From a bacterium (GTDB taxonomy: Bacteria; Bacillota; Clostridia; TANB77; UBA1234), in contig CAVHNT010000044.1 in NCBI GenBank assembly GCA_963637565.1, forward strand, positions 519-64,518: DNA of 64,000 nt, read 5' to 3'. Every line of letters begins with the position of its first letter. The stretch's first letter is position 1. The translations under genes were made by a program, and so were the position numbers. Of this stretch, positions 1,834 through 50,867 are shown in pieces. A model generated the notes under the pieces. It made no database searches. It was given only the letters and a program-made list of their open reading frames with translations, and was not told where the DNA came from.

Positions 1834-3498
1834 ATGATTAATATCAATGAAAATACTGTGGCAGTTGAAACGTCTGCTGAATTAAAAAATGTTTTGGAAG
1901 CTAGTAACGATATAACTTATATATATTTGGCGAATGACATTACTTTAGAACAAGGAATAACAATTCTAGGGACAAAGGCACAAGTAACAATAGATGGACT
2001 CTATCCTGCCGACGAAACAGGGAAAATACATACATATACAGATATGAATAGTGCGGGTAGTGGAGATGCTATTGGTGTAAGAACCGCTAGTAACATACAT
2101 GTAAAAGTAAAAAACCTTAACGTCGTTGGAAAAAATTATTATGGGTTGATTTATGTATCTGAAACTTCTGCACACAAAGATGTAATTATTACTTATGAAA
2201 ATATAACATATAATGGTCCACAAATCACCTATCATCCTAGTGGACTTTCTATTTATCAAGATATGAACATAAACATAGTTGCCTCTACAGCTTCTCCTGC
2301 AAATGAGGTTGGAGAAGTTGGGAGTATTCAAATGGGTGGAAAAGTAGTAATAACACACAATGCGACTGGAGATTCAACATTTTGGTTTAGAGGAACAACA
2401 GGTACGCCATATATTGAAATACTGCAGGATGCTGATGTTTCTATAACCACCACAAGAGATATTGCATATACATCGAATTATTTAAAAGTCACTGTAAATA
2501 AGAATGCGAAATTTAACGTTAAAAGCAAATATGGATTCTTTAGAGATAATGGACATCAGGCATCTAGCATTTTAGTTGATGAAAATAGTGTGTTTTCAAT
2601 AATTCAAAGTCAGGCAAATGGTACTGTTGCAACATTAAATTGTCGAGGCGACTTCGAGGTGAATAGCGGTGCTACTATTTATTTAGAAGCTAATTATCAG
2701 AACTCGGCACCACTTATACTATTTAATACAACATCATCAAAGTTTAATATAAATAATCCTAAGAGTTTAATTCTATATAATAAAAGTTACAATTGTTTAG
2801 GTTTTGGAAATACCTCAACATTCAATATAAATTGTGGCAAACTTGATTATTGGGCAACATCTCCAGAGCTAATTGAAACAGGAAATATTGGCAATAATCC
2901 ACTGTATGCTTGGTATAAGTCAGGCACAGAAAACTTAAGTATGATTTCAAGTGTAACGTCGTCAAAAACAACAATAACAAGTACTAATTTAACAGATGAA
3001 GAAAAGACAAAGTTACCAGACTTGACTCTCTTAACATTTCAAACTGCAAAGACTATAAGGATTATGGAATTTGGAACTTTAGAATTATTAAGTGCACCAT
3101 CTAAAATAGAATTCCAGCGTCCAATAATAAAAGAAAATCCTCTTATACTTGGCAGGAAAAATGACGAAATAACTATATTAGTTAGTGATTCTAGAGTAAT
3201 TAGTTCGGAATGGTATTTATACGCGTATATAGAAAAACCACTCACGAGTTCAAATCAGAAATATACGTTAAAAGACTCACTAATTTTTGTGTCTGAAAGT
3301 GGAAAAATAAAAACGTTAAGTGATACTCCAACTCTAGTATACACAGGCAGTTCGAGTGGTGGAACATCGAAAACAACGGATATAAAATGGAATAAAACTG
3401 ATGGAATATTATTTCAAGTTATAGATGCTCTTTACAATGGAGAAACATATACTACTCCAATTAATTGGATTCTTACTGAAGAAAAAATAGAGTCTTGA
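1834..3498 (+). CDS. Hypothetical protein with predicted right-handed parallel beta-helix (pectin-lyase-like) repeats
   Basis: The likely start is M at 1834 (MININENTV) behind AAAGGGG. The sequence has repetitive N/T/S/G-rich short beta-strand segments and no signal peptide. It ends with a TGA stop, which shows TGA is a stop codon in this genome. Confidence 0.4.
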   Translation: MININENTVAVETSAELKNVLEASNDITYIYLANDITLEQGITILGTKAQVTIDGLYPADETGKIHTYTDMNSAGSGDAIGVRTASNIHVKVKNLNVVGKNYYGLIYVSETSAHKDVIITYENITYNGPQITYHPSGLSIYQDMNINIVASTASPANEVGEVGSIQMGGKVVITHNATGDSTFWFRGTTGTPYIEILQDADVSITTTRDIAYTSNYLKVTVNKNAKFNVKSKYGFFRDNGHQASSILVDENSVFSIIQSQANGTVATLNCRGDFEVNSGATIYLEANYQNSAPLILFNTTSSKFNINNPKSLILYNKSYNCLGFGNTSTFNINCGKLDYWATSPELIETGNIGNNPLYAWYKSGTENLSMISSVTSSKTTITSTNLTDEEKTKLPDLTLLTFQTAKTIRIMEFGTLELLSAPSKIEFQRPIIKENPLILGRKNDEITILVSDSRVISSEWYLYAYIEKPLTSSNQKYTLKDSLIFVSESGKIKTLSDTPTLVYTGSSSGGTSKTTDIKWNKTDGILFQVIDALYNGETYTTPINWILTEEKIES

Positions 3499-3540
3499 AA
3501 TCCATGAAGTGCTGTGAAAAAATTTGTATATTTATAGAAA

Positions 3541-3603
3541 AAGAAAGGGATGTATAAGTGATTACTATTAGTAATCTTTTTATAATCCCTTTCTTTATTT
3601 TTA
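3541..3603 (+). terminator. Putative intrinsic terminator (long hairpin + T-run) after beta-helix gene
   Basis: AAAGAAAGGGAT (3541-3552) pairs with ATCCCTTTCTTT (3585-3596). A nested palindrome ATTACTAtTAGTAAT lies in the loop. An ATTTTTAA tract follows. Confidence 0.45.
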
Positions 3604-5377: not shown

Positions 5378-6391
5378 ATGCTTAATTGTTCTGCTAAAGT
5401 GTATTTTAAAAAATTTGAAGAATATATAAAGAATGGAAAAAAGGACAAATACAGAGCTGAATTACAACAGGCTGAAAAATGTTTGATAGAAGATACTACG
5501 AGTATGATATCAGTTTTGGAAGGAAAAAAAGTGGACAAAAGCTTTATTACAAATATATTGCCTGAGGGAAATGAAAATTGTGAACGTAGATTTATTGAAA
5601 TGGACAATAAGGCTATATTGTACCTTTTTGCGAAGGAAATTCAAAAACTAAATATTGGAAATAATTTCGAGGTTTTAACTCCAGGCTATGGAAGTGTGTA
5701 CATAGGTCCATTTCTTAAAATTATGTGTGGCTATAATTATAGTAACATGATGAAAAGCAAGTATATTGATGAAACAAATGGCACGATATCTCATTCTTTA
5801 GTAGATTTACTATCTAATGATAAAATGTTACATTCTGATGTTGGAATTTTGTTATTAGATGATAATATCGGCACTGGTTCTACAATGGTTGATATTAAAC
5901 AAAAGCTGAAAAAAATAGGAAAAAACAATGTGATGTCTGGCGCTGTTCAATATAATTGGAGAAATTATTATAGAGTTTCAATAGGAGAAAAAACGGATAT
6001 AGAAAGATTTGAAGTAGATGATTATGACTTTTTAACGCCACTTAATTATGCTGGACACAAATTGTATGAACATGCTGTAAATGCTTTGAACTCTAGTGGA
6101 ATGGAATATATTGAATATTTAAATACAAAGGGATACAGAATGAATGATAGGTATTGTGACATTGTAGGAGATTTACTTCGTGGCTTAACATGGGCTGGGA
6201 AAGCTAATTTAGAGCTTATTCCACTAAAGAAAAGTAATAATGAATTATGTGAAGTTCTTCCTAAATACAAACATGGACCATTTAGAGTAAGTAATACAAA
6301 TGCAAGACTAATGATACAATTCATGTATAAATCATTGCAAGACTTACTAGATAAAGATATTGATGATAAAGAGTATAGTAATAGAGAATGA
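5378..6391 (+). CDS. Phosphoribosyltransferase (PRTase type I fold)-domain protein of unknown specificity
   Basis: The PRPP-binding loop DVGILLLDDNIGTGSTMVDIKQKL matches the canonical VLLVDDvltTGxT motif. The 337-aa protein is longer than housekeeping PRTases and has extra N- and C-terminal regions. It is tightly linked to the upstream gene. Confidence 0.55.
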   Translation: MLNCSAKVYFKKFEEYIKNGKKDKYRAELQQAEKCLIEDTTSMISVLEGKKVDKSFITNILPEGNENCERRFIEMDNKAILYLFAKEIQKLNIGNNFEVLTPGYGSVYIGPFLKIMCGYNYSNMMKSKYIDETNGTISHSLVDLLSNDKMLHSDVGILLLDDNIGTGSTMVDIKQKLKKIGKNNVMSGAVQYNWRNYYRVSIGEKTDIERFEVDDYDFLTPLNYAGHKLYEHAVNALNSSGMEYIEYLNTKGYRMNDRYCDIVGDLLRGLTWAGKANLELIPLKKSNNELCEVLPKYKHGPFRVSNTNARLMIQFMYKSLQDLLDKDIDDKEYSNRE

Positions 6392-16437: not shown

Positions 16438-16529
16438 GAAATAATCCCTTAGTTAAAAACTAAGGGATTATTAAAACGATATAAATAAAAAATTGCATGG
16501 ATACTATAAAAGAGGAGAGAAAATATCAA

Positions 16530-17357
16530 ATGTTAGACGGAATTTTAATCATAGATAAACCAGCCGGAATAACATCACATGATGTGGTTGCAAAGGTAAG
16601 AAAAGCATTAAAAACTAAAAAAGTAGGACATACAGGCACTCTGGATCCACTTGCAACAGGTGTATTAGTTGTGTGTGTTGAAAAAGCTACGAAACTTGTA
16701 AATTATTTGACATGTGATGAGAAAGTTTATGAAGTTGAAATGAAATTCGGAATAAAAACTGATACAGGTGATATAACAGGAAAAATAATTGATGAGGACA
16801 CTAACTATGAGATAGATATGAGTAAAATTCAAAGAACAATAAGTAAATTTATTGGAAAGCAAGAACAGATACCACCTATGTATTCTGCAATAAAAGTAAA
16901 TGGAAAAAAGTTATATGAATTAGCTCGTGAAGGAATTGAAATAGAACGAGAAGCAAGAAAAATTGAGATATTTGAAATAAAAAATATAGAATGGAAAGAC
17001 GAAATATTGAAATATACAGTGCATTGTTCAAAAGGAACGTACATAAGAAGTTTGTGCGAAGATATTGCAAGAGAGCTTGGAACTATAGGAACAATGACTA
17101 ACTTAAGAAGGATTCAATTAGGTAAATTTCAAATAAAAGATGCAATAAAAATAGAAGATATATCAGAAGAAAAAATAATATCAATAGAAAAACTTTTCGA
17201 CAAAGAAATTGATGTAAAAAACAATTTAAAAGAACTACTAAACGGTATGAAAATTCAGTGTATAAGACCAGATGGACTATACAAATTATACGCCGACAAA
17301 TTTATAGGTATAGGAAAAATAGAGAAGAATTATTTAAAAAGAGAAATAATTTTGTAG
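16530..17357 (+). CDS. truB: tRNA pseudouridine(55) synthase TruB
   Basis: GILIIDKPAGITSHDVVAKVRK...KVGHTGTLDPLATGVLVVCV is the TruB catalytic Asp motif region. Confidence 0.9.
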   Translation: MLDGILIIDKPAGITSHDVVAKVRKALKTKKVGHTGTLDPLATGVLVVCVEKATKLVNYLTCDEKVYEVEMKFGIKTDTGDITGKIIDEDTNYEIDMSKIQRTISKFIGKQEQIPPMYSAIKVNGKKLYELAREGIEIEREARKIEIFEIKNIEWKDEILKYTVHCSKGTYIRSLCEDIARELGTIGTMTNLRRIQLGKFQIKDAIKIEDISEEKIISIEKLFDKEIDVKNNLKELLNGMKIQCIRPDGLYKLYADKFIGIGKIEKNYLKREIIL

Positions 17358-17465
17358 AAAATGGAAAATGAAAAAATTTGCGAGAATACCTTAAATATGT
17401 AAAAATATAAATGTACTTAAGTAAGGGGAAGTATTGCTAGAAAAAATAATTTAAGGAGAATTTAT

Positions 17466-18779
17466 ATGATAAAGAAAAATGACGATTTGGAAGTGAACAT
17501 TTCTGATATAGGCTATGAAGGTGAAGGAATAGCCAAAATAGATGGATACACAACTTTTATAAAAGGTGGACTAAAAGGCGAAAAAGTAAAAATAAAAATG
17601 CTAAAAGTGAATAAAAATTTTGGCTTTGCAAAACTACTTGAAGTATTAGAAAGAAGTGATGAGAGAGAAGAGCCAGTTTGTGATGTTTTTGGAAAATGTG
17701 GTGGATGCAATTTACAACATATTAACTATGAAGCACAATTAGATTATAAGACAAGCATGGTAAAAAACACATTAAAAAAGGCCCTAGGATATGATGTTTA
17801 TGTTGAACAAACGATTGGAATGGGAATACCATACAATTACAGAAATAAAGCACAATATCCTGTGGTAGATGATAAAATAGGTTTCTTTGCGGGTAGAACA
17901 CATGCTTTAATTGAAAATGAAAAATGTTACATACAAAATGAAATATCAGATAAGCTTGCAAAAGACGCTTTTAAAATATTAAAAAAGCATAATATTACTT
18001 CATATAATGAGAAAAATGGAAAAGGTTGTTTAAGGCATATAATAACCAGAATTGGCATAAATACAGGCGAGCTAATGCTTATACTAGTAATAAACGAAAA
18101 AAATATAAAACATAAAGAAGAAATAGTTAGTGAACTAATTAAGAAATATCCAATGTTAAAATCAATAATTCAAAATATAAATTCAAAGAATACTAATGTG
18201 ATACTTGGAAATGAATGTATTACTTTGTATGGAGAAGGATATATAACAGACATACTAGGCGAATACAAATTTAAAATATCACCGCTGTCATTCTACCAAG
18301 TAAATCCAGTACAAACAGAAGTGTTGTACAACATAGCAAAAGAATATGCAAATTTGCAAGGAACAGAAACAGTATTTGATTTGTACTCAGGAATTGGAAC
18401 AATATCGATTTTTATAGCAGATAGTGCCAAAAAAGTATATGGGGTGGAAATAGTTGGACCTGCGGTTATTGATGCAAAAGAAAATGCCGAAATAAACGAG
18501 ATAAGAAATGTAGAATTCATACAAGGAGAAGCCGAAGTGATAGTTCCCCAAATGTATAAGGAAGGAAAAAAAGCAGATGTAGTGTTTGTAGATCCACCAA
18601 GAAAAGGCTGTGATGAAAGATTACTAAAAACAATAAAAGAGATGAAAGCTGAAAAAGTAGTATATATAAGCTGTAATCCAGCAACATTAGCAAGAGATTT
18701 GAGATATTTAACTGACAATGAGTATGAAATAGAAAAAGTACAACCAGTTGATATGTTTCCACAAACGCGGACATGTTGA
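17466..18779 (+). CDS. rlmD: 23S rRNA (uracil-C5)-methyltransferase RlmD/RumA family (TRAM + Fe-S + SAM MTase)
   Basis: It has an N-terminal TRAM domain, a Fe-S cysteine cluster CDVFGKCGGC, the SAM motif FDLYSGIGT and the C-terminal motif DPPRKG. Confidence 0.85.
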   Translation: MIKKNDDLEVNISDIGYEGEGIAKIDGYTTFIKGGLKGEKVKIKMLKVNKNFGFAKLLEVLERSDEREEPVCDVFGKCGGCNLQHINYEAQLDYKTSMVKNTLKKALGYDVYVEQTIGMGIPYNYRNKAQYPVVDDKIGFFAGRTHALIENEKCYIQNEISDKLAKDAFKILKKHNITSYNEKNGKGCLRHIITRIGINTGELMLILVINEKNIKHKEEIVSELIKKYPMLKSIIQNINSKNTNVILGNECITLYGEGYITDILGEYKFKISPLSFYQVNPVQTEVLYNIAKEYANLQGTETVFDLYSGIGTISIFIADSAKKVYGVEIVGPAVIDAKENAEINEIRNVEFIQGEAEVIVPQMYKEGKKADVVFVDPPRKGCDERLLKTIKEMKAEKVVYISCNPATLARDLRYLTDNEYEIEKVQPVDMFPQTRTC

Positions 18780-18993
18780 ATGTGTTGTGTTGCTATGTCG
18801 TAGAAGCTAGTTATATCAAGGCGTTTATAGAATTGGTATGTAGATAAAAATACTTATTTTTAATTAAAAATTGATAAATTATTTTGAACCTCGTTTGCGG
18901 AAGGTAGATGAAATTTTGTATACTTGTCAAGAATGTGAAACAAAATTTCAAAAATTAATTGTAATACTACAAGTGTGTACTAAGTGCTATGCA

Positions 18994-19032
18994 ACAGCAC
19001 ATTTACAATTTTATGTAAATGTGCTATAATAT
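18994..19032 (+). promoter_or_regulatory. Near-consensus sigma-70 promoter upstream of the GC-rich ORF
   Basis: TTTACA, a 17-nt spacer, then TATAAT. It lies about 140 nt upstream of GTG 19175. Confidence 0.55.
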
Positions 19033-19174
19033 TGCTGTGTCTTAAAGATTTAGACCATTCAATGCAGTTGTTAGACTAACACCTACGTTGGAAAAGTTTG
19101 ATTACATTTTGATAATCAGGCAAAAGCAAGCAATTACCCCAAAAAGGATAGAATAGGAGAAAGGGCAATAAAAA

Positions 19175-19531
19175 GTGAAGATTCGTAGTATGATTAGTTG
19201 TGGACCTCTGAGAGCTGGTCAGCTCTATGACGTGCAGCAGGCAGACGGAAATCTCGTTGTGCTGAAGGGTGTGCCAGGAATTTGGGAGACGGGCAATTTT
19301 GTGATTGAATCGCAACAGCCTGAAGTTTACCTGGCTATTGCCTACGAGTTTCCCATTGTTGGGTACCCCCTCAGTTGCAAAAAAATTGATGGGTGCCGTG
19401 AAACCGGAGAAGTAAGGATTCTTGAAACCATCACGACCTCTCCTGTTATGGCGATGAACTACATAGGTGGAAACATTTGGAGTGTTTTCACCTATAGTGG
19501 CAATCTGTACATCGTACAGGTAGTTGCTTGA
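19175..19531 (+). CDS. Hypothetical 118-aa protein, compositionally foreign (about 48% GC in a roughly 29% GC genome)
   Basis: A GTG start sits behind AGGAGAAAGG. Its codon usage is rich in G/C-ending codons, unlike its neighbours. It has its own promoter upstream and a hairpin+T-run downstream. No recognisable motif. Confidence 0.5.
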   Translation: MKIRSMISCGPLRAGQLYDVQQADGNLVVLKGVPGIWETGNFVIESQQPEVYLAIAYEFPIVGYPLSCKKIDGCRETGEVRILETITTSPVMAMNYIGGNIWSVFTYSGNLYIVQVVA

Positions 19532-19535
19532 TTAA

Positions 19536-19580
19536 AAAACAGCTTTGGTGACTTTTAGTTGCCAGAGCTATTTTTTATGT
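19536..19580 (+). terminator. Putative intrinsic terminator after GC-rich ORF
   Basis: CAGCTTTGG...CCAGAGCT is an imperfect stem, followed by ATTTTTTAT. Confidence 0.35.
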
Positions 19581-19731
19581 AATAGGAAAGTAACAAATTT
19601 GCAACTTTTTATGTATTAATTTTCTTTCCTATTGCATAAAAAACTTTAATTTATGCGAGAGATTTTCTTTCTTTCAGTCGAAAACTCTCGAGGGTCGAAA
19701 GAATGAAAATCGAAGATTTTCATCTTTCTTG
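19571..19731 (+). repeat. Composite palindromic intergenic repeat, copy 1 (module A 19571-19645 + module B 19653-19731)
   Basis: Module A is TTTTTATGTAATAGGAAAG-(loop)-CTTTCCTATTGCATAAAAAAC, with 15-bp arms. Module B is ATGCGAGAGATTTTCTTTCTTTCAGTCGAAAACTCTCGAGGGTCGAAAGAATGAAAATCGAAGATTTTCATCTTTCTTG, with two hairpins. The same sequence recurs at 21658-21818(-), 28994-29154(+), 50791-50867 (A only), 44518-44610 (degenerate) and 35653-35681 (B tail). Confidence 0.85.
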
Positions 19732-19806
19732 TCTATTACTAGTATTGAAAATATAGTGTTAATATATTAAGATAGATGTGTATTATAAAGATTATTATTT
19801 TAGGAG

Positions 19807-20406
19807 ATGGATAGATTGAAACTTATACTTGCATCAAATTCGAAATGGAGAAAGAAATTAATTAATATGGCAGGCTTTGATTGTGAGGTAATTCCAAGCA
19901 ATGTTTCGGAAAATATAGAGTTCAATTCGCCAGACGAATATGTTATGGAACTTTCAAGAAGAAAGGCAACAGAAGTGGCTGGTAAGTTAACAGAGGGGAT
20001 TGTAATTTCAGCTGATACGATTGGATATATGGATAATGAAAAATTTGAGAAACCAAAAAGCAGGGAAGAAGCTTTTAGAAACATAAAGAAGCTTTCAGGC
20101 AGAGTTAATTATGCTGTTACTGGTGTTACAATTATAGATATTGAAAAAAATAAGAAAACTACATTTGCAGAAAAAACGGAAGTTTATTTTAAAGAGATGT
20201 CGGATGAAGAAATAAATTGGTATATAGATAACGAAAAATCAGTATATGATTGTGCTTGTTACTCAATAGAAACAGCTGGTTCGTTATTTATTTCAAAAGT
20301 TGTGGGTAATTATACTAATATAGTTGGCTTGCCAATAAGTAGGATATACGAAGAAATTAGAAATTTTGGATATTCAATAAGTGACTTTCCAGTGGTAAAG
20401 GATTAG
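19807..20406 (+). CDS. maf: Maf-like nucleoside triphosphate pyrophosphatase (septum formation protein Maf)
   Basis: LILASNSKWRKKL...ISADTI are the Maf motifs. The true start may be TTG 19816, because GGAG abuts the ATG at 19807. Confidence 0.8.
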   Translation: MDRLKLILASNSKWRKKLINMAGFDCEVIPSNVSENIEFNSPDEYVMELSRRKATEVAGKLTEGIVISADTIGYMDNEKFEKPKSREEAFRNIKKLSGRVNYAVTGVTIIDIEKNKKTTFAEKTEVYFKEMSDEEINWYIDNEKSVYDCACYSIETAGSLFISKVVGNYTNIVGLPISRIYEEIRNFGYSISDFPVVKD

Positions 20407-20614: not shown

Positions 20615-21541
20615 TTAATGGATTAATTCCTGAACATTAATTGAAATGCTACTTGATGCTTCGAGGGTTTCGGATTCAGAAGAAAAGCCATTGCTAGCAC
20701 CATTGTAACTGATTTTCCTGGAAGCAAATACTTCTGCTAACTTAAGAGAATAGAGTGCATCATTATTCTTAAGATAGAAATGTAAGAAACTACTAAAGAG
20801 TGCATCACCAGCACCAATGGTATTAACAACATTTTCGTTATATACTGCTGAGAGTGAATACAGTTTGTCATGTTCTCTTTCGTACAAAAGTGCACCGTTT
20901 TTACCCAATCCGACAACAATGATTGAGAGATTGGGGTATAGATCCTTAAGTTGTAAAACAAAGCCAATTTGTTGACCTTGAATTCCTTCGTCACTGAGGA
21001 ACAAAATCGTTGCGTTAGACATGAATTCCTTATTGTAATCATCATGTACACTTCTTAGAACATGCACGTCCGTCGCAATTAACTTATTCGCTTCTCTTGC
21101 TAATCTTAGCAAAGGTCTGTTGAAATTAACGTTGCATGCCACAATCAAATCATATTTACTGATATCAACCGTGTGGAACGGAAATTGAGTAGCTTGAATA
21201 TCTTTCAAATCGGAGTAGATTTGGCGTTTTCCATCATCAGAGTGTAGCACTACTGAAGATGGAGTACCTTTGAGAACTTGGCGAATATTTTCCGTTTTGA
21301 TAGAGTCCTGTTGCAACGTATCGAGGATTATTCTGGCTGTTAAGTCGTTTCCTAACAGTGAAATCAGCGAAACATCGTCGGAAAGCGTAGAAAAGGACTT
21401 AGCAAGATTATATCCAACGCCACCAACATTCGAATTTACTCCGAAAGATGGGTAGCAGACTGGAAAGTAATTAATCGGAAAATTTCCAACTTTGACATTC
21501 GTCTCCACGTTTGCTAAGCCAGAAACAAGAACCTTTTTCAC
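20615..21541 (-). CDS. PfkB-family carbohydrate/nucleoside kinase (ribokinase-like)
   Basis: A GTG start sits behind AGGAGGG. The N-terminal motif is GNFPINYFP, and the C-terminal motif is VNTIGAGDALFSSFL (the PfkB DTxGAGD motif). Its GC content, about 40%, is higher than the flanks. Confidence 0.75.
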   Translation of the reverse strand: MKKVLVSGLANVETNVKVGNFPINYFPVCYPSFGVNSNVGGVGYNLAKSFSTLSDDVSLISLLGNDLTARIILDTLQQDSIKTENIRQVLKGTPSSVVLHSDDGKRQIYSDLKDIQATQFPFHTVDISKYDLIVACNVNFNRPLLRLAREANKLIATDVHVLRSVHDDYNKEFMSNATILFLSDEGIQGQQIGFVLQLKDLYPNLSIIVVGLGKNGALLYEREHDKLYSLSAVYNENVVNTIGAGDALFSSFLHFYLKNNDALYSLKLAEVFASRKISYNGASNGFSSESETLEASSSISINVQELIH

Positions 21542-21657: not shown

Positions 21658-21818
21658 CAAGAAAGATGAAAATCTTTGATTTTCATTCTTTCGACTCTCG
21701 AGAGTTTTCGACTGAAAGGAAGAAAATCTCTCGCAATAGAATAAAGTTTTTATACAATAGGAAAAATTTAATACATAAAAAGTTATAAATCTGCTACGTT
21801 CCTATTGTATAAAAAAAC
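21658..21818 (-). repeat. Composite palindromic intergenic repeat, copy 2 (inverted relative to copy 1)
   Basis: Its reverse complement reads TTTTTATACAATAGGAACGTAGCAGATTTATAAC...CCTATTGTATAAAAAC + ATTGCGAGAGATTTTCTTCCTTTCAGTCGAAAACTCTCGAGAGTCGAAAGAATGAAAATCAAAGATTTTCATCTTTCTTG. It is about 90% identical to copy 1. Confidence 0.85.
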
Positions 21819-24059: not shown

Positions 24060-24284
24060 TGAAAATCATCCTTTCTATATTTCGATTTGTTATGACAAAA
24101 TTTGAATGCATATATATGATACTATTTTTTTTTCAAAAAAGCAATCAAACAGCTTTGTAATTTTTCGTTTAATATTTATTCAAAAAATTGTGCGTGTATA
24201 CAAAAAATTAATTCATGTAACAAAATTTTTCCTTCATTTGAAGAATATTTAGAATTGAAATTAAAAATTTTCATAATTCTGGTA

Positions 24285-28993: not shown

Positions 28994-29154
28994 TTTTTAT
29001 GTAATAGGAAAGTAACAGATTTGCAACTTTTTGTGTGTTAATTTTCTTTCCTATTACATAAAAAACATTAATTTATGCGAGAGATTTTCTTCCTTTCGGT
29101 CGAAAATTCTCGAGGGACGAAAGAATGAAAATCGAAGACTTTCATTCTTTCTTG
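28994..29154 (+). repeat. Composite palindromic intergenic repeat, copy 3
   Basis: TTTTTATGTAATAGGAAAGTAACAGATTTGCAACTTTTTGTGTGTTAATTTTCTTTCCTATTACATAAAAAAC + ATGCGAGAGATTTTCTTCCTTTCGGTCGAAAATTCTCGAGGGACGAAAGAATGAAAATCGAAGACTTTCATTCTTTCTTG. It lies between two convergent genes. Confidence 0.85.
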
Positions 29155-40531: not shown

Positions 40532-43438
40532 ATGAAAGTACTTTTCGCTATGGGAAATGACCAAGTGTCAACAAATGTTGCCAATAGGTATTATGAAAAA
40601 TATGGAGAGGTTTTAGAATATAAGAATGTGTTCTTTTTTAAAGCTCTAATTGAAGAAGTAAAAAGAGATAAAACATATGACAGGATTGTAATAAGTGAGG
40701 AATTAGAACAATTTAGAGCAAAGGATTTAGAACAAGTAGATAGGTATTTATTTAATAGCATTGACAAGATAACAGATGAGATTCAGGACTCAGATATTAT
40801 ATTTATATGTTCAGATAGAAGAGAAAAAGGAGACGCTTTTGTAAGTAAGTTGTTTAGTATAGGTATTTACAACTTATTGCTTGGAGACGACAGAAATGTA
40901 AATCCTCTTTGTGAAATAATAAAAAAGCCTAAGAATAAAAGGGAAGCAAAACAGTATTTAAATATAGATGCATCATCAATTGTTAATACTTCGATGACAA
41001 CAGATGATGAGGTTGATGAATTCCAGATGAGAAGTATATTAAGCTTTTATGAAGGAATAAGAAATCAACCTGAAAAGTATTTGGAAACTTTTGACAGAAT
41101 AGCAGAGCAGTATAGCAGAAAACAATTAAAAATCATAGTTTCAATGCTACCAAAACAAATCACTGATGTGGTGTTACAGGCAGATAGATATAAGTATTTA
41201 GCATCTTTACCGCAACAAGATGCACCTACTCAAGTTGCCCAACCAACTCCTGTAAAAGAGCAAAAATCGAAGAGTGGAGGCTTTTTGGGTGTCTTTAGAA
41301 GGCATAAAGTAGAGCAACTTCAACCAAAAGTTGAAAAACAAGTTCCACCAGTGCAATCTATACAACAAGGTGGACAAGTTGATTTGAGTAGCAACGAGGA
41401 TGAGCAAAAGCAAGCAGAATTAATGGCTCGAGCTCGTGAAGAAGCTAAAGCGAGAGAAAAAGCCGAAGTCGAAGCCAAAAAGCAAGCAGAGCTTGCAGCT
41501 AAAGCAAAAGCTGAGGTAGAAGCAAGACAACAAGCAGAACTTGCAGCTAAAGCAAAAGCCGAAGTCGAAGCAAGGCAACAAGCAGAACTTGCAGCTAAAG
41601 CAAAAGCTGAGGTAGAAACAAGACAGCAAGCAGAACTTGCAGCCAAAGCAAAAGCTGAAGCAGAGGCAAGACAGCAAGCAGAGCTTGCAGCTAAAGCAAA
41701 AGCTGAAGCAGAGGCAAGACAGCAAGCAGAGCTTGCAGCTAAAGCAAAAGCTGAAGCAGAGGCAAGACAGCAAGCAGAGCTTGCAGCTAAAGCAAAAGCT
41801 GAAGCAGAGGCAAGACAGCAAGCAGAGCTTGCAGCTAAAGCAAAAGCTGAAGCAGAGGCAAGACAGCAAGCAGAGCTTGCAGCTAAAGCAAAAGCTGAAG
41901 CAGAGGCAAGACAGCAAGCAGAACTTGCAGCTAAAGCAAAAGCTGAAGCAGAGGCAAGACAGCAAGCAGAACTTGCAGCTAAAGCAAAAGCTGAAGCAGA
42001 GGCAAGACATAAAGCTGAATTAGATAAAATAGCTGCTGAAAGAAGAGAAAAAGAAAAACTTGCAGAATTAGCAAAAATAGAAGAACAAGAAAAGATTAAT
42101 GATATAGAAAAAGCCAAAAAAGATGCTGAACTTGCTGCAAAAGAACGTTTAGATCAAATGGCTAAAAATGAAAATGTAATTATAGAAGTAAAACCTAACT
42201 TGAATGCACCAGATAGACCAGTAGAACCTATTAAAAATGTACAACCAGTTTTACAAAAAACTTCTGATGCCATAAAAGCAAATTCTGAAAACAAGCAGCA
42301 AGAAACGACTACAACTAAAAAAGAAGAAGTTGTTAAAAATATTCAAGAAAACAAAAATGCAAATTTAGCTGTTGATGAAAGTCGTCAACAAAGTGTTAAA
42401 CCAAATTCAGTTGCTGTTTCAGAAGATGAGAAGAGAATGAAGGCAGAACAAGAAAAATTAGCAATGGAACAAAAGAGAATTAAAGAGGAACAGGCTAAGT
42501 TAGAGGAAGAAAAGAAAAGGTTAAGAGAAGAGCAAGAAAAACTTATAAATGCTCAAAATCAATTAAAAGCTAATGCTACAAATGAGTATAGTGCGCCACA
42601 ATATACTAATACTCCAGCAAATACACAAATTGCTCCTCTTGATTATAAAAAGATGGTTGTTTTTGTTGGTGCAAACAAAGTTGGTACAACATTTATTACA
42701 AATGCAATAGCTCACTCAATGGCAAATGCGAAGATAAATACATCAATATTGGATATGACTAGAGATAGAAGCATGTTTTATTTATACAATCAAAATGATA
42801 AAACATTAAGAAAAAGAGCAGAAGAGTGTATGCAAAAAGTAATGGATGGAGACGATTGCTATTTAGAAACAACAAATAGATATTTAAAAGTATACACCAC
42901 AATTCCAGGAACACTGACAGACCCACGAAGGGGTTATAAGCATAAAGCAATTATAGAAACAGTTAAATCAAACTGCAACTTAACGATTGTTGATGCTGAT
43001 TTTACAACACCAATTGATTACTTTGATCAAGCAAATGAAGTATATTTAGTCCAAGATTTAGATTTATTAAAAATGCCTGATACTACTCTATTTTTAAGAG
43101 AGTTAAAAAATAGAGGAATGGACATGAAAAAAATAAGAATAATAATTAATAAGTATGTAAAAACATCACTATCACAAAAACAAATTGTTCAGACATTATC
43201 ATCTTATAGTGATCCTAGTATGTCGTTTTATGATACGGTATTACCAGGAAAAGTCATGTCGTATATAGTACCTTACAACCTAAACAATTATGCTAAATAT
43301 GTTGATTCTGTTTGTAGTGGAGTGCTAAGTTACAAAGGATATTCAGCCGATTTTATGCAAGCAATAGACGAAATTGGCTCGGCAATATTTCCAAAAAATA
43401 ATCCTACTGGAAAAACTTCAAGGAGATTTTTTGGATAA
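40532..43438 (+). CDS. Large repeat-containing protein: N-terminal receiver-like domain, 16-aa tandem coiled-coil repeats, C-terminal degenerate ParA/MinD (CpaE/TadZ-like) domain
   Basis: The N-terminus is MKVLFAMGNDQ.... There are about 12 near-identical AELAAKAKAEAEARQQ units. The C-terminus has KKMVVFVGANKVGTTFITNAIAHS (a deviant P-loop) ... NLTIVDADFTTP (Walker-B-like) ... IRIIINKY. Confidence 0.5.
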   Translation: MKVLFAMGNDQVSTNVANRYYEKYGEVLEYKNVFFFKALIEEVKRDKTYDRIVISEELEQFRAKDLEQVDRYLFNSIDKITDEIQDSDIIFICSDRREKGDAFVSKLFSIGIYNLLLGDDRNVNPLCEIIKKPKNKREAKQYLNIDASSIVNTSMTTDDEVDEFQMRSILSFYEGIRNQPEKYLETFDRIAEQYSRKQLKIIVSMLPKQITDVVLQADRYKYLASLPQQDAPTQVAQPTPVKEQKSKSGGFLGVFRRHKVEQLQPKVEKQVPPVQSIQQGGQVDLSSNEDEQKQAELMARAREEAKAREKAEVEAKKQAELAAKAKAEVEARQQAELAAKAKAEVEARQQAELAAKAKAEVETRQQAELAAKAKAEAEARQQAELAAKAKAEAEARQQAELAAKAKAEAEARQQAELAAKAKAEAEARQQAELAAKAKAEAEARQQAELAAKAKAEAEARQQAELAAKAKAEAEARQQAELAAKAKAEAEARHKAELDKIAAERREKEKLAELAKIEEQEKINDIEKAKKDAELAAKERLDQMAKNENVIIEVKPNLNAPDRPVEPIKNVQPVLQKTSDAIKANSENKQQETTTTKKEEVVKNIQENKNANLAVDESRQQSVKPNSVAVSEDEKRMKAEQEKLAMEQKRIKEEQAKLEEEKKRLREEQEKLINAQNQLKANATNEYSAPQYTNTPANTQIAPLDYKKMVVFVGANKVGTTFITNAIAHSMANAKINTSILDMTRDRSMFYLYNQNDKTLRKRAEECMQKVMDGDDCYLETTNRYLKVYTTIPGTLTDPRRGYKHKAIIETVKSNCNLTIVDADFTTPIDYFDQANEVYLVQDLDLLKMPDTTLFLRELKNRGMDMKKIRIIINKYVKTSLSQKQIVQTLSSYSDPSMSFYDTVLPGKVMSYIVPYNLNNYAKYVDSVCSGVLSYKGYSADFMQAIDEIGSAIFPKNNPTGKTSRRFFG
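41435..42010 (+). repeat. 48-bp tandem repeat array (about 12 units) inside CDS 40532-43438
   Basis: The unit is GCAGAGCTTGCAGCTAAAGCAAAAGCTGAAGCAGAGGCAAGACAGCAA. Five consecutive units (41675-41914) are 100% identical, and the outer units carry 1-4 substitutions. Confidence 0.9.
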
Positions 43439-50765: not shown

Positions 50766-50800
50766 TAAAGATGGGCAGTAGATTTTAATTCTACTGCTTA
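50766..50800 (+). terminator. Intrinsic terminator after ankyrin gene
   Basis: The hairpin GCAGTAGA-TTTTAAT-TCTACTGC is followed by TTATTTTTAT. Confidence 0.55.
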
Positions 50801-50867
50801 TTTTTATGTAATAGGGAAGTAACAGAATTGCAACCTTTTATGTATTGATTTTTATCTTTCCTGTACA
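50791..50867 (+). repeat. Solo module-A copy of the intergenic palindromic repeat
   Basis: TTTTTATGTAATAGGGAAGTAACAGAATTGCAACCTTTTATGTATTGATTTTTATCTTTCCTGTACAATACAAA. The right arm is partly degenerate. Confidence 0.7.

Follow-up and report, generated by a model that had tools for sequence, protein, structure and literature searches.

A GC-rich accessory gene unit of AT-rich Clostridia with a strongly base-paired predicted mRNA and deeply diverged alleles

The window analyzed here is a stretch of 64,000 nucleotides (nt) from a Clostridia genome (GenBank assembly GCA_963637565.1, contig CAVHNT010000044.1), in which positions 18997-19576 form one self-contained gene unit composed of a promoter, a leader, an open reading frame (ORF) and a terminator. 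The genes next to the unit code for TruB, an RlmD-like protein, Maf and PfkB, which are housekeeping functions, and for a Tim44-like protein, and the unit does not lie in a prophage. When 60 window ORFs that do not overlap and have 100 or more amino acids (aa) were compared, ORF 19175-19531 was the most extreme in composition. It has a guanine plus cytosine (GC) content of 46.8% and a GC fraction at third codon positions (GC3) of 0.47, whereas the 60 ORFs average 31.0% (standard deviation (sd) 3.4) and 0.205 (sd 0.051), which corresponds to z scores of 4.6 and 5.2, respectively. Rare codons, defined as those used in less than 10% of cases within their synonymous family, make up 21% of the ORF as compared to a median of 4.5% in the window genes. 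Sliding-window analysis revealed a GC peak of 41-45% at 19000-19600 in surroundings of about 30%. An earlier sequence-only reading of this DNA had described a compositionally deviant ORF of 118 aa at about 48% GC, and both the ORF and the anomaly were recovered, with a GC content slightly under that value. The second GC3 outlier of the window was the pfkB-family kinase gene on the minus strand (20615-21541; GC 38%, GC3 0.34), the first 357 nt of which folded with a z score of -2.2 relative to synonymous shuffles.

Near relatives of the encoded protein were first found as three clusters at 100%, 83% and 81% identity, and a fourth allele class was located inside one of these clusters. Between allele classes the ORF shares 76-85% nucleotide identity, and synonymous divergence (dS) amounts to 0.73-1.84. 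The differences were distributed over codon positions 1, 2 and 3 as 13/12/50 or 19/7/58, the ratio of nonsynonymous to synonymous divergence (dN/dS) ranged from 0.06 to 0.11, and all full-length gene calls had 118 aa. Codon-position pattern, dN/dS and fixed length rule out a chance ORF in a non-coding RNA, and by these substitution criteria ORF 19175-19531 is a real protein-coding gene.

Divergence of the ORF was not matched by its surroundings. For maf and pfkB, the same pairs of genomes displayed dS values of only 0.00-0.25 at a dN/dS similar to that of the ORF. One case is the comparison of loci L007 (protein P0002) and L038 (P0054) with a dS of 0.00-0.03 in the flanks and 0.93 in the ORF. 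Likewise, L001 and L007 are 97-99% identical over 8 kilobases (kb) and only 74-84% identical in the ORF. Two further divergence hot spots were seen between L001 and L007, one at 1-700 in the 5′ part of a Big_2 gene, corresponding to the N-terminal region of a giant surface protein (less than 60% identical), and one at 6230-6380 between pfkB and the Tim44 gene, where the window has an inverted copy of the repeat described below. Comparison of the flanks distinguished three backgrounds, namely lineage A with P0003, lineage B with both P0002 and P0054, and lineage C, represented by the window, with P0001. Flanks of lineage B are 98-99.3% identical and are not sorted by allele, and within an allele class the ORF differs at 0-1 nt per 357. 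The divergent block between L007 and L038 begins at the ribosome-binding site and stops about 45 nt short of the stop codon. These limits indicate that recombination took place, with breakpoints in the leader and in the 3′ hairpin, both of which are conserved, and the mismatch between gene and flank divergence indicates a horizontal exchange of alleles. The main subfamily of the wider protein family behaves in the opposite way, as dS of the family gene is 0.06-0.21 versus 0.44-0.77 for its upstream neighbour. Opposite divergence patterns in two subfamilies demonstrate that the gene has its own history. In the loci compared there are at least four discrete, deeply diverged allele classes, two of which segregate in one population, which suggests balancing selection or a repeated replacement of alleles.

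When a gene is GC-rich within an AT-rich genome, recent horizontal transfer is the usual interpretation, and the sequence-only reading had accordingly proposed a recently acquired gene of foreign composition. All four allele classes have a GC content of 47-49% and a GC3 of roughly 0.47-0.54, despite dS values of 0.7-1.8, so that a decay of composition toward the host was not seen. The universal presence of homologues with similar GC content at the same position in close relatives had been named beforehand as an observation against recent acquisition, and this is what was seen in every close relative retrieved, albeit with retrieval through the protein itself. Moreover, the family genes at about 20 distant loci have 38-43% GC between flanks of 25-30%, which makes them 8-18 points richer than their surroundings; the exception is the L015 subgroup. 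The GC excess has been kept through saturating synonymous change and is shared by the distant family, which argues against a transient scar of transfer. We infer that the composition of the ORF is held by selection for a base-paired mRNA and does not reflect recent foreign origin. Alternatively, each allele might have been imported separately from a GC-richer pool, but no such pool was found. In the exceptional subgroup (P0044 subgroup, L015-L017, 5001-5390), the gene is AT-rich with 24.9% GC and shows no excess over the host.

The predicted transcript (19037-19577) has a minimum free energy of -177.5 kcal/mol as compared to -141.5 kcal/mol (sd 6.0) for dinucleotide shuffles (z = -5.99). As a strict control we used synonymous-codon shuffles of the ORF, which hold protein sequence, codon usage and GC content constant. 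The window allele remained more stable than these shuffles with z scores of -3.6 and -4.4 in two runs, and comparable scores were obtained for L001 (-3.7 to -4.2), L007 (-4.3 to -4.9) and L038 (-4.6). In contrast, 26 segments of other window genes gave a mean z score of -0.46 (sd 1.10, minimum -2.93). The sense strand of the ORF folded 27-33 kcal/mol more stably than the antisense strand and contained 14-23 G-U pairs; the strand asymmetry points to an RNA rather than a DNA structure.

A consensus fold calculated from the four alleles comprises 127 pairs with 96.3% of the cells paired. In this fold, 15 pairs have changed on both sides and are nevertheless kept, versus 5.8 (sd 1.9) in column shuffles (0/500), and the number fell to 1-4 when the partners were slid against each other. 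Three of the double-sided changes reside in helix 19463-19495. The most robust helices were 19186-19226, 19235-19264, 19288-19303, 19371-19389, 19463-19495, 19496-19528 and the terminator. In addition to these local hairpins, the leader is predicted to form a long-range helix with the end of the ORF (Table 1). All four alleles, each folded separately to minimum energy, and also the consensus contain this helix, and the allele changes within it (G-U/G-C or U-G/U-A/A-U) preserve pairing. Predicted folds containing this leader-to-stop helix keep the ribosome-binding site open.

Table 1. Positions of the predicted features of the gene unit and of the neighbouring repeat in the window.
Feature	Position	Strand	Remark
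Palindrome GCACATTTACA-N6-TGTAAATGTGC	18997-19024	+	11-bp arms; covers the -35 hexamer and the promoter spacer
Sigma-A-type promoter	19002-19030	+	-35 TTTACA 19002-19007; 17-nt spacer; TG 19022-19023; -10 TATAAT 19025-19030
5′ leader	19037-19174	+	about 138 nt; start inferred as 7 nt after the -10 hexamer
Leader hairpins	19039-19055, 19058-19092, 19096-19121	+	predicted in every allele
Long-range helix, 5′ strand CAAGCAAUUACC	19127-19138	+	in leader; pairs with ORF end
Shine-Dalgarno sequence, weak (AAAGGG)	~19160-19165	+	in leader
ORF	19175-19531	+	118 codons; GTG start (not ATG); TGA stop 19529-19531
Conserved ORF hairpins	19186-19210, 19211-19226, 19235-19264, 19288-19303, 19371-19389, 19463-19495, 19496-19528	+	examples from the chain of ORF hairpins
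Long-range helix, 3′ strand GGUAGUUGCUUG	19519-19530	+	last codons and part of the stop codon
Intrinsic terminator	19534-19576	+	core stem 19541-19569 (13 pairs); A-tract/T-tract extension to about 20 pairs; T-run
Repeat at the terminator	19572-19731		about 160 nt
Other repeat copies	28994-29145; 21658-21816 (inverted); 50792-50852; 24119-24179 (weak)

The promoter of the unit matches the sigma-A consensus at 11 of 12 positions and carries a TG extension, in agreement with the near-perfect promoter described earlier. It ranked best among seven promoter-like sites within 18500-20200. As the number of such sites is at the level of shuffled sequence (6.6, sd 2.7), only the quality of this site stands out. 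The spacer contains the motif TTATGTAAA, which occurs nowhere else in the window. The same layout was found upstream of family members with only about 30% protein identity; it consists of TTGACA, TTGCAA or TTTACA, a spacer with TTATGTAAA and a TRTG-type -16 element, and TATAAT. Right after this conserved promoter, the family transcripts open with a hairpin. The palindrome overlapping the promoter marks the left limit of homology between the window and its relatives, in which a paired A>G / T>C change preserves the symmetry. The palindrome may be an operator or a structural element. A search for its core (TTTACA-N6-TGTAAA, at most one mismatch) returned no further copies above chance in the window. 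A regulon defined by the palindrome or the spacer motif was considered and rejected, given that neither has additional window copies beyond chance.

The length of the leader, counted from the deduced transcription start, agrees with the approximately 140 nt given before. Folded alone, it was no more stable than its shuffles (z = -0.29). One pair of its hairpins has changed on both sides and is still paired, and several other changes are wobble-compatible, in a comparison of only four near-identical leaders. Apart from one 5′ hairpin, leaders of the other subfamilies are not homologous to that of the window. Translation signals are weak in the window clade (AAAGGG and GTG), whereas the main subfamily has AAGGAGG and ATG. 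Searches against Rfam yielded no match in the 64-kb window at gathering thresholds, only chance-level microRNA or small RNA matches in 18800-19800 at E values up to 10, and only transfer RNAs (tRNAs) in four family loci; a scan of the window for tRNA and transfer-messenger RNA genes also returned nothing. A riboswitch in the leader, which the sequence-only reading had suggested looking for, was set aside as unsupported, given the leader z score and the missing Rfam match.

The stem at 19541-19569 with its T-run is the sole terminator-like site within 18500-20200. In the four-allele consensus the terminator helix has 20 pairs with 98.7% of the cells paired and one double-sided change that is kept. 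Its A/T symmetry suggests that it could stop transcription from both directions. On the minus strand of 19037-19577, a consensus scan, which could miss weak promoters, detected no promoter-like site; the only minus-strand site is located at 19789-19761 in the maf promoter region. Promoter, ORF and terminator together are consistent with an independently transcribed gene, as had been proposed. Loci of the main subfamily have a conserved element of about 110 nt behind the terminator of the family gene (L026 at about 3450-3580; also L018, L024, L029, L030 and L034). It has its own promoter-like site, ends with GGCACCA and is followed by terminator hairpins that differ between loci. This element, which has no Rfam match, may be an undescribed small RNA or leader.

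The T-run of the terminator merges into a repeat, as had been noticed before. The repeat resembles a miniature inverted-repeat transposable element (MITE); it is intergenic, has internal hairpins, and its copies start within the T-runs of terminators. Related copies are present in the sister species L043 at 2796-2903 (upstream of maf) and 1603-1680. At the site of the unit, the repeat is missing in the close relatives L001, L007 and L038, which shows that it is a separate mobile element and a separate insertion, and the connection made earlier between the gene and the adjacent repeat was not borne out. Elsewhere in the window, a tandem array at 41316-42131 consists of about 17 units of 48 nt with 62-85% identity to the reference copy (reported by the search as 12 overlapping 288-nt copies spaced 48 nt apart) and probably encodes a repetitive protein segment.

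The unit is located directly upstream of maf-pfkB-Tim44-Band_7 in 17/17 loci, among them L001-L011 and L038-L040, all from human-gut metagenome assemblies, belonging to three related lineages and retrieved through the protein itself. On its other side, relatives have the gene of a Big_2 protein of 1,500-1,800 aa, as compared to truB-rlmD in the window. Only one of 185,579 GTDB species representatives, a Clostridia metagenome-assembled genome, contains the gene. An additional search was performed through Maf to escape the bias of protein-based retrieval. In two sister species with Maf proteins of 88% (L041) and 84% (L043) identity, neither tblastn nor blastn revealed a trace of the unit. L041 has the arrangement TraX-maf, and L043 the arrangement truB-rlmD-TetR-maf, with a TetR-family gene in the slot of the unit (L043 1-3600 and L041 1800-3600 were compared with window positions 16497-20406). 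The differing occupants (unit, TetR, TraX) identify the rlmD-maf interval as a variable slot in the genus. Judged from these loci, the unit is accessory at the genus scale; it is found across the window clade, whereas the next sister species do not have it. Either the ancestor of the window clade acquired the unit or other lineages lost it, and it predates the split of the clade.

In 50,697 phage records, tblastn produced no match, and the plasmid and viral-contig collections contained no relatives of the family. In two loci unrelated to each other (L019 at 3431-3596 and L012 at 3290-3370), the family unit is immediately preceded by tRNA genes; as these are common integration sites, they may be relevant to the way in which the unit moves. 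Flanks in the main subfamily looked unalignable around a unit that is 92-99% identical. A mobile element was not adopted as explanation, as the effect is partly due to faster-evolving syntenic neighbours; terminal repeats or target duplications were not identified at the main-subfamily units.

A profile search in 1.84 billion representative proteins identified 16 proteins at E values of at most 1e-3, most of them 120-135 aa long, and a second search using the family profile yielded 40 proteins. The alignment of the 16 proteins spans the full length with invariant residues L12, G15, Y18, L30, G35, F42, A54, T88 and Y112, and distant homologues share about 25-38% identity with the window protein. 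In the searched collections, every family member found so far belongs to AT-rich Clostridia, with gut and other metagenomes as sources. A second family copy was not detected in the window by tblastn. A structure model based on an alignment of 35 sequences, which replaced a 3-sequence model with a predicted local distance difference test (pLDDT) score of 51, was confident, contained beta strands throughout and displayed two SH3-like beta-barrels. The model could be superimposed on SH3 domains. Signal peptide, membrane segment and hydrophobic segment were absent by inspection. According to the model, the product is a small soluble cytoplasmic protein with two SH3-like beta-barrels. Small barrels of this type usually bind a partner, either nucleic acid or peptide, and the modelled fold makes it most likely that the window protein acts by binding such a partner. 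Several family members (P0004, P0006, P0012, P0013 and P0017 with 157-246 aa, and P0015 with 793 aa) have a doubled C-terminal barrel or carry the domains within a larger protein, which indicates that the barrels behave as separate modules.

The earlier statement that the protein matches no recognized family was corroborated, since Pfam, NCBIfam, PHROGs and PADLOC provided no significant match. With relaxed limits, the window protein matched nothing in Pfam at E values up to 10, including PF20111 (DUF6501), and neither the window protein nor five relatives matched a PADLOC defence model at E values up to 0.1. Two distant relatives score 19.1 and 21.7 bits against PF20111, for which the gathering threshold is 23.8, and none of 35 aligned family members matched it at E values up to 0.1. 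Precomputed weak matches to PF27001 (Phage_T4_Y07B) exist on one distant AT-rich subgroup only, with none recorded for the window protein. Proteins P0008 and P0044, for which such an entry exists, did not match the family in the Pfam copy searched here, which appears to lack the model. Foldseek searches of PDB and BFVD returned no significant full-length match; the best viral fold match was cd.1 of T4-like phages (E 4.8e-3, template modeling (TM) score 0.44). Nothing relevant on Y07B, DUF6501, PF27001 and PF20111 turned up in the literature searched. The P0044 subgroup has a sub-threshold match to PF16773 Phage_SSB (18.9 bits, cut-off 25).

Weighing these results, we lean with modest confidence towards a long-resident accessory unit that has an abundant, base-paired, probably long-lived and slowly translated mRNA, a two-barrel protein binding a partner, a GC content selected at the RNA level, and old alleles that recombine. 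A near-consensus sigma-A promoter inside the palindrome would drive a transcript of about 540 nt. This transcript would be folded more tightly than protein sequence and codon usage require, by means of the 5′ hairpins, the chain of ORF hairpins, the leader-to-stop helix and the long terminator stem. Selection for a paired mRNA would keep the ORF at 47-49% GC within a 31% GC genome, and the fold might make the mRNA long-lived. The weak Shine-Dalgarno sequence and the GTG start might lead to slow translation. The protein would then act through binding of nucleic acid or a peptide, and homologous recombination would carry the allele classes from one genome to another that is almost identical. Taken alone, the gene looks like any hypothetical one; what is unusual is the combination of GC excess, mRNA structure, promoter motif and old alleles.

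Several points weigh against this reading. Among other family members, L018, L033 and L015 had z scores of about -0.7, two of them (L018 and L033) despite being GC-rich, whereas L012 and L019 do show extra structure (z = -2.9 and -3.3). As extra structure is not universal among GC-rich members, specific hairpins are not the whole cause of the GC excess. The covariation test is based on four alleles only, and the structure was derived from the same sequences. In the middle of the ORF, consensus folds from three and from four alleles disagree. Close relatives were retrieved via the protein itself, so that same-clade genomes without the unit would be missed. The putative function of the protein is derived from the modelled fold class. 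The anatomy of the unit, its coding status and fold class, its distribution and composition, the excess of predicted structure together with covariation, and the allele classes are results of the analysis, whereas the transcription start, the mRNA stability, the low translation, the selection behind the GC excess and the role of the protein are interpretations.

A recent, moron-like acquisition, in which the GC content would still be that of its foreign source, with no decay towards the host so far, would explain why the ORF is the top compositional outlier of the window, why it has its own promoter and terminator, why sister species lack it, why homology with relatives begins exactly at the promoter palindrome and why gene and flank divergences conflict. 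We nevertheless consider it distinctly improbable, because the unit occupies the same site in three background lineages that are about 3-5% apart, all four alleles retain their GC3 at saturated dS, distant family members in other AT-rich hosts display the same excess, no GC-rich host, phage or plasmid with the family was found, and the context is housekeeping without a prophage. Part of the earlier view persists, namely the accessory distribution at genus scale and a horizontal exchange of alleles, whereas 'recent' does not fit a unit that every close relative retrieved through the protein has upstream of maf. The divergence itself could also come from local hypermutation of the ORF, caused for instance by transcription or by template switching at near-palindromes, which would create apparent compensation as well. 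Both dN and dS are 5- to 12-fold above the neighbours at a similar ratio, and the region is rich in hairpins. However, ORFs of one class differ less than their flanks, the allele classes are discrete, and the main-subfamily gene has diverged less than the gene next to it. Ongoing hypermutation was rejected on the basis of the 0-1 nt differences in 357 within an allele class, and the explanation as a whole appears very improbable. Least credible of all is a structured non-coding RNA with a chance ORF. Large non-coding RNAs of AT-rich genomes are classically recognized as GC-rich, strongly folded transcripts between a promoter and a terminator, but substitutions with a period of three, the low dN/dS, the constant ORF length in all alleles, protein homologues of about 30% identity that align over the whole length, the confident structure model and the missing Rfam match leave this explanation next to no weight.

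Two other explanations, both unlikely, assign an additional role to the RNA or to the gene. The abundant, folded 540-nt transcript might itself be functional, for example by regulating, by acting as a decoy or by partnering its own protein, which would then be only one of two products. Such a dual function, which we hold to be doubtful, would be consistent with excess structure and covariation in all four alleles, with a strong promoter that contrasts with weak Shine-Dalgarno sequence and GTG start, with the long-range helix linking 5′ and 3′ parts of the transcript, and with a sense-strand-specific structure rich in G-U pairs. On the other hand, no Rfam family matches, no target or binding partner is known, extra structure is missing from the GC-rich main subfamily, and much of the conservation already follows from the strong purifying selection that acts on the protein. 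Similarly doubtful is a conflict or addiction module, in line with the immunity or toxin genes brought up in the sequence-only reading, that is, a selfish or defensive single gene kept polymorphic by frequency-dependent selection, with a stable and poorly translated mRNA as in type I toxins. Discrete, deeply diverged alleles within one population, the patchy distribution in varied contexts, the self-contained unit of atypical composition and the predicted fold-back of the mRNA would fit, but there is no PADLOC match, the unit revealed neither a partner gene nor an antisense promoter, its product of 118 aa is soluble and no small membrane peptide, signs of diversifying selection on the protein are missing at a dN/dS of about 0.07, and the main-subfamily gene is more conserved than its neighbour.

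The long-resident accessory unit favoured here is filed under none of the known systems it resembles. Phage morons are independent promoter-gene-terminator units inserted between prophage genes. Likeness exists in the strong promoter and terminator around a single gene, as read from the sequence, in the deviant composition and patchy distribution, and in a function unrelated to the neighbours. In contrast to morons, however, the unit lies outside any prophage next to truB, rlmD, maf and pfkB, its family has no phage, viral-contig or plasmid relatives, and the unit has stayed at one chromosomal site across several lineages, so that the designation as moron-like was abandoned. The mRNAs of hok/sok-type type I toxins are stable, folded back and poorly translated, and the toxin peptide is small and hydrophobic, usually under 60 aa. 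The compact predicted mRNA with its putative helix between 5′ leader and 3′ end of the ORF, the weak translation signals behind a strong promoter and the small, self-contained, accessory nature of the unit are reminiscent of this type. The product, however, is a soluble 118-aa beta protein instead of a hydrophobic peptide, the consensus scan found no antisense RNA gene or promoter at the unit, and the predicted fold leaves the ribosome-binding site open. With balanced-allele loci (pherotype, bacteriocin-immunity and restriction-specificity loci) the unit shares discrete classes about 15-24% apart in nucleotide sequence between nearly identical flanks, sharp boundaries, low diversity within a class and an allele class independent of the background. 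Unlike these loci, it consists of a single small cytoplasmic protein gene under dN/dS of about 0.07, without a partner gene, secretion signal or known specificity determinant. Finally, similarity to PF27001, PF20111 and cd.1 is weak and confined to the N-terminal SH3-like barrel; matches of relatives to the two Pfam families, both of which are uncharacterized, are marked weak for PF27001 and stay below the gathering threshold for PF20111.

A more far-reaching and rather improbable proposal is that the unit and its relatives represent a new class of self-contained RNA-protein modules in gut Clostridia, in which the folded mRNA partners its own SH3-like protein, for example for autoregulation or in an antitoxin-like manner, and the alleles are co-evolving specificities under balancing selection that recombination exchanges. 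If true, this would be a new conflict or strain-recognition element with a GC content set by RNA structure, not by ancestry. Screens for non-coding RNAs that are based on GC-rich intergenic regions could mistake such units for non-coding RNAs. Deviant GC content may here report selection on RNA rather than foreign origin, which bears on methods for finding genomic islands. The uncharacterized, Clostridia-specific family with its shared promoter spacer motif has a clear regulatory signature, and old alleles between near-identical flanks in one human-gut population are the pattern expected at loci of strain interaction or conflict.

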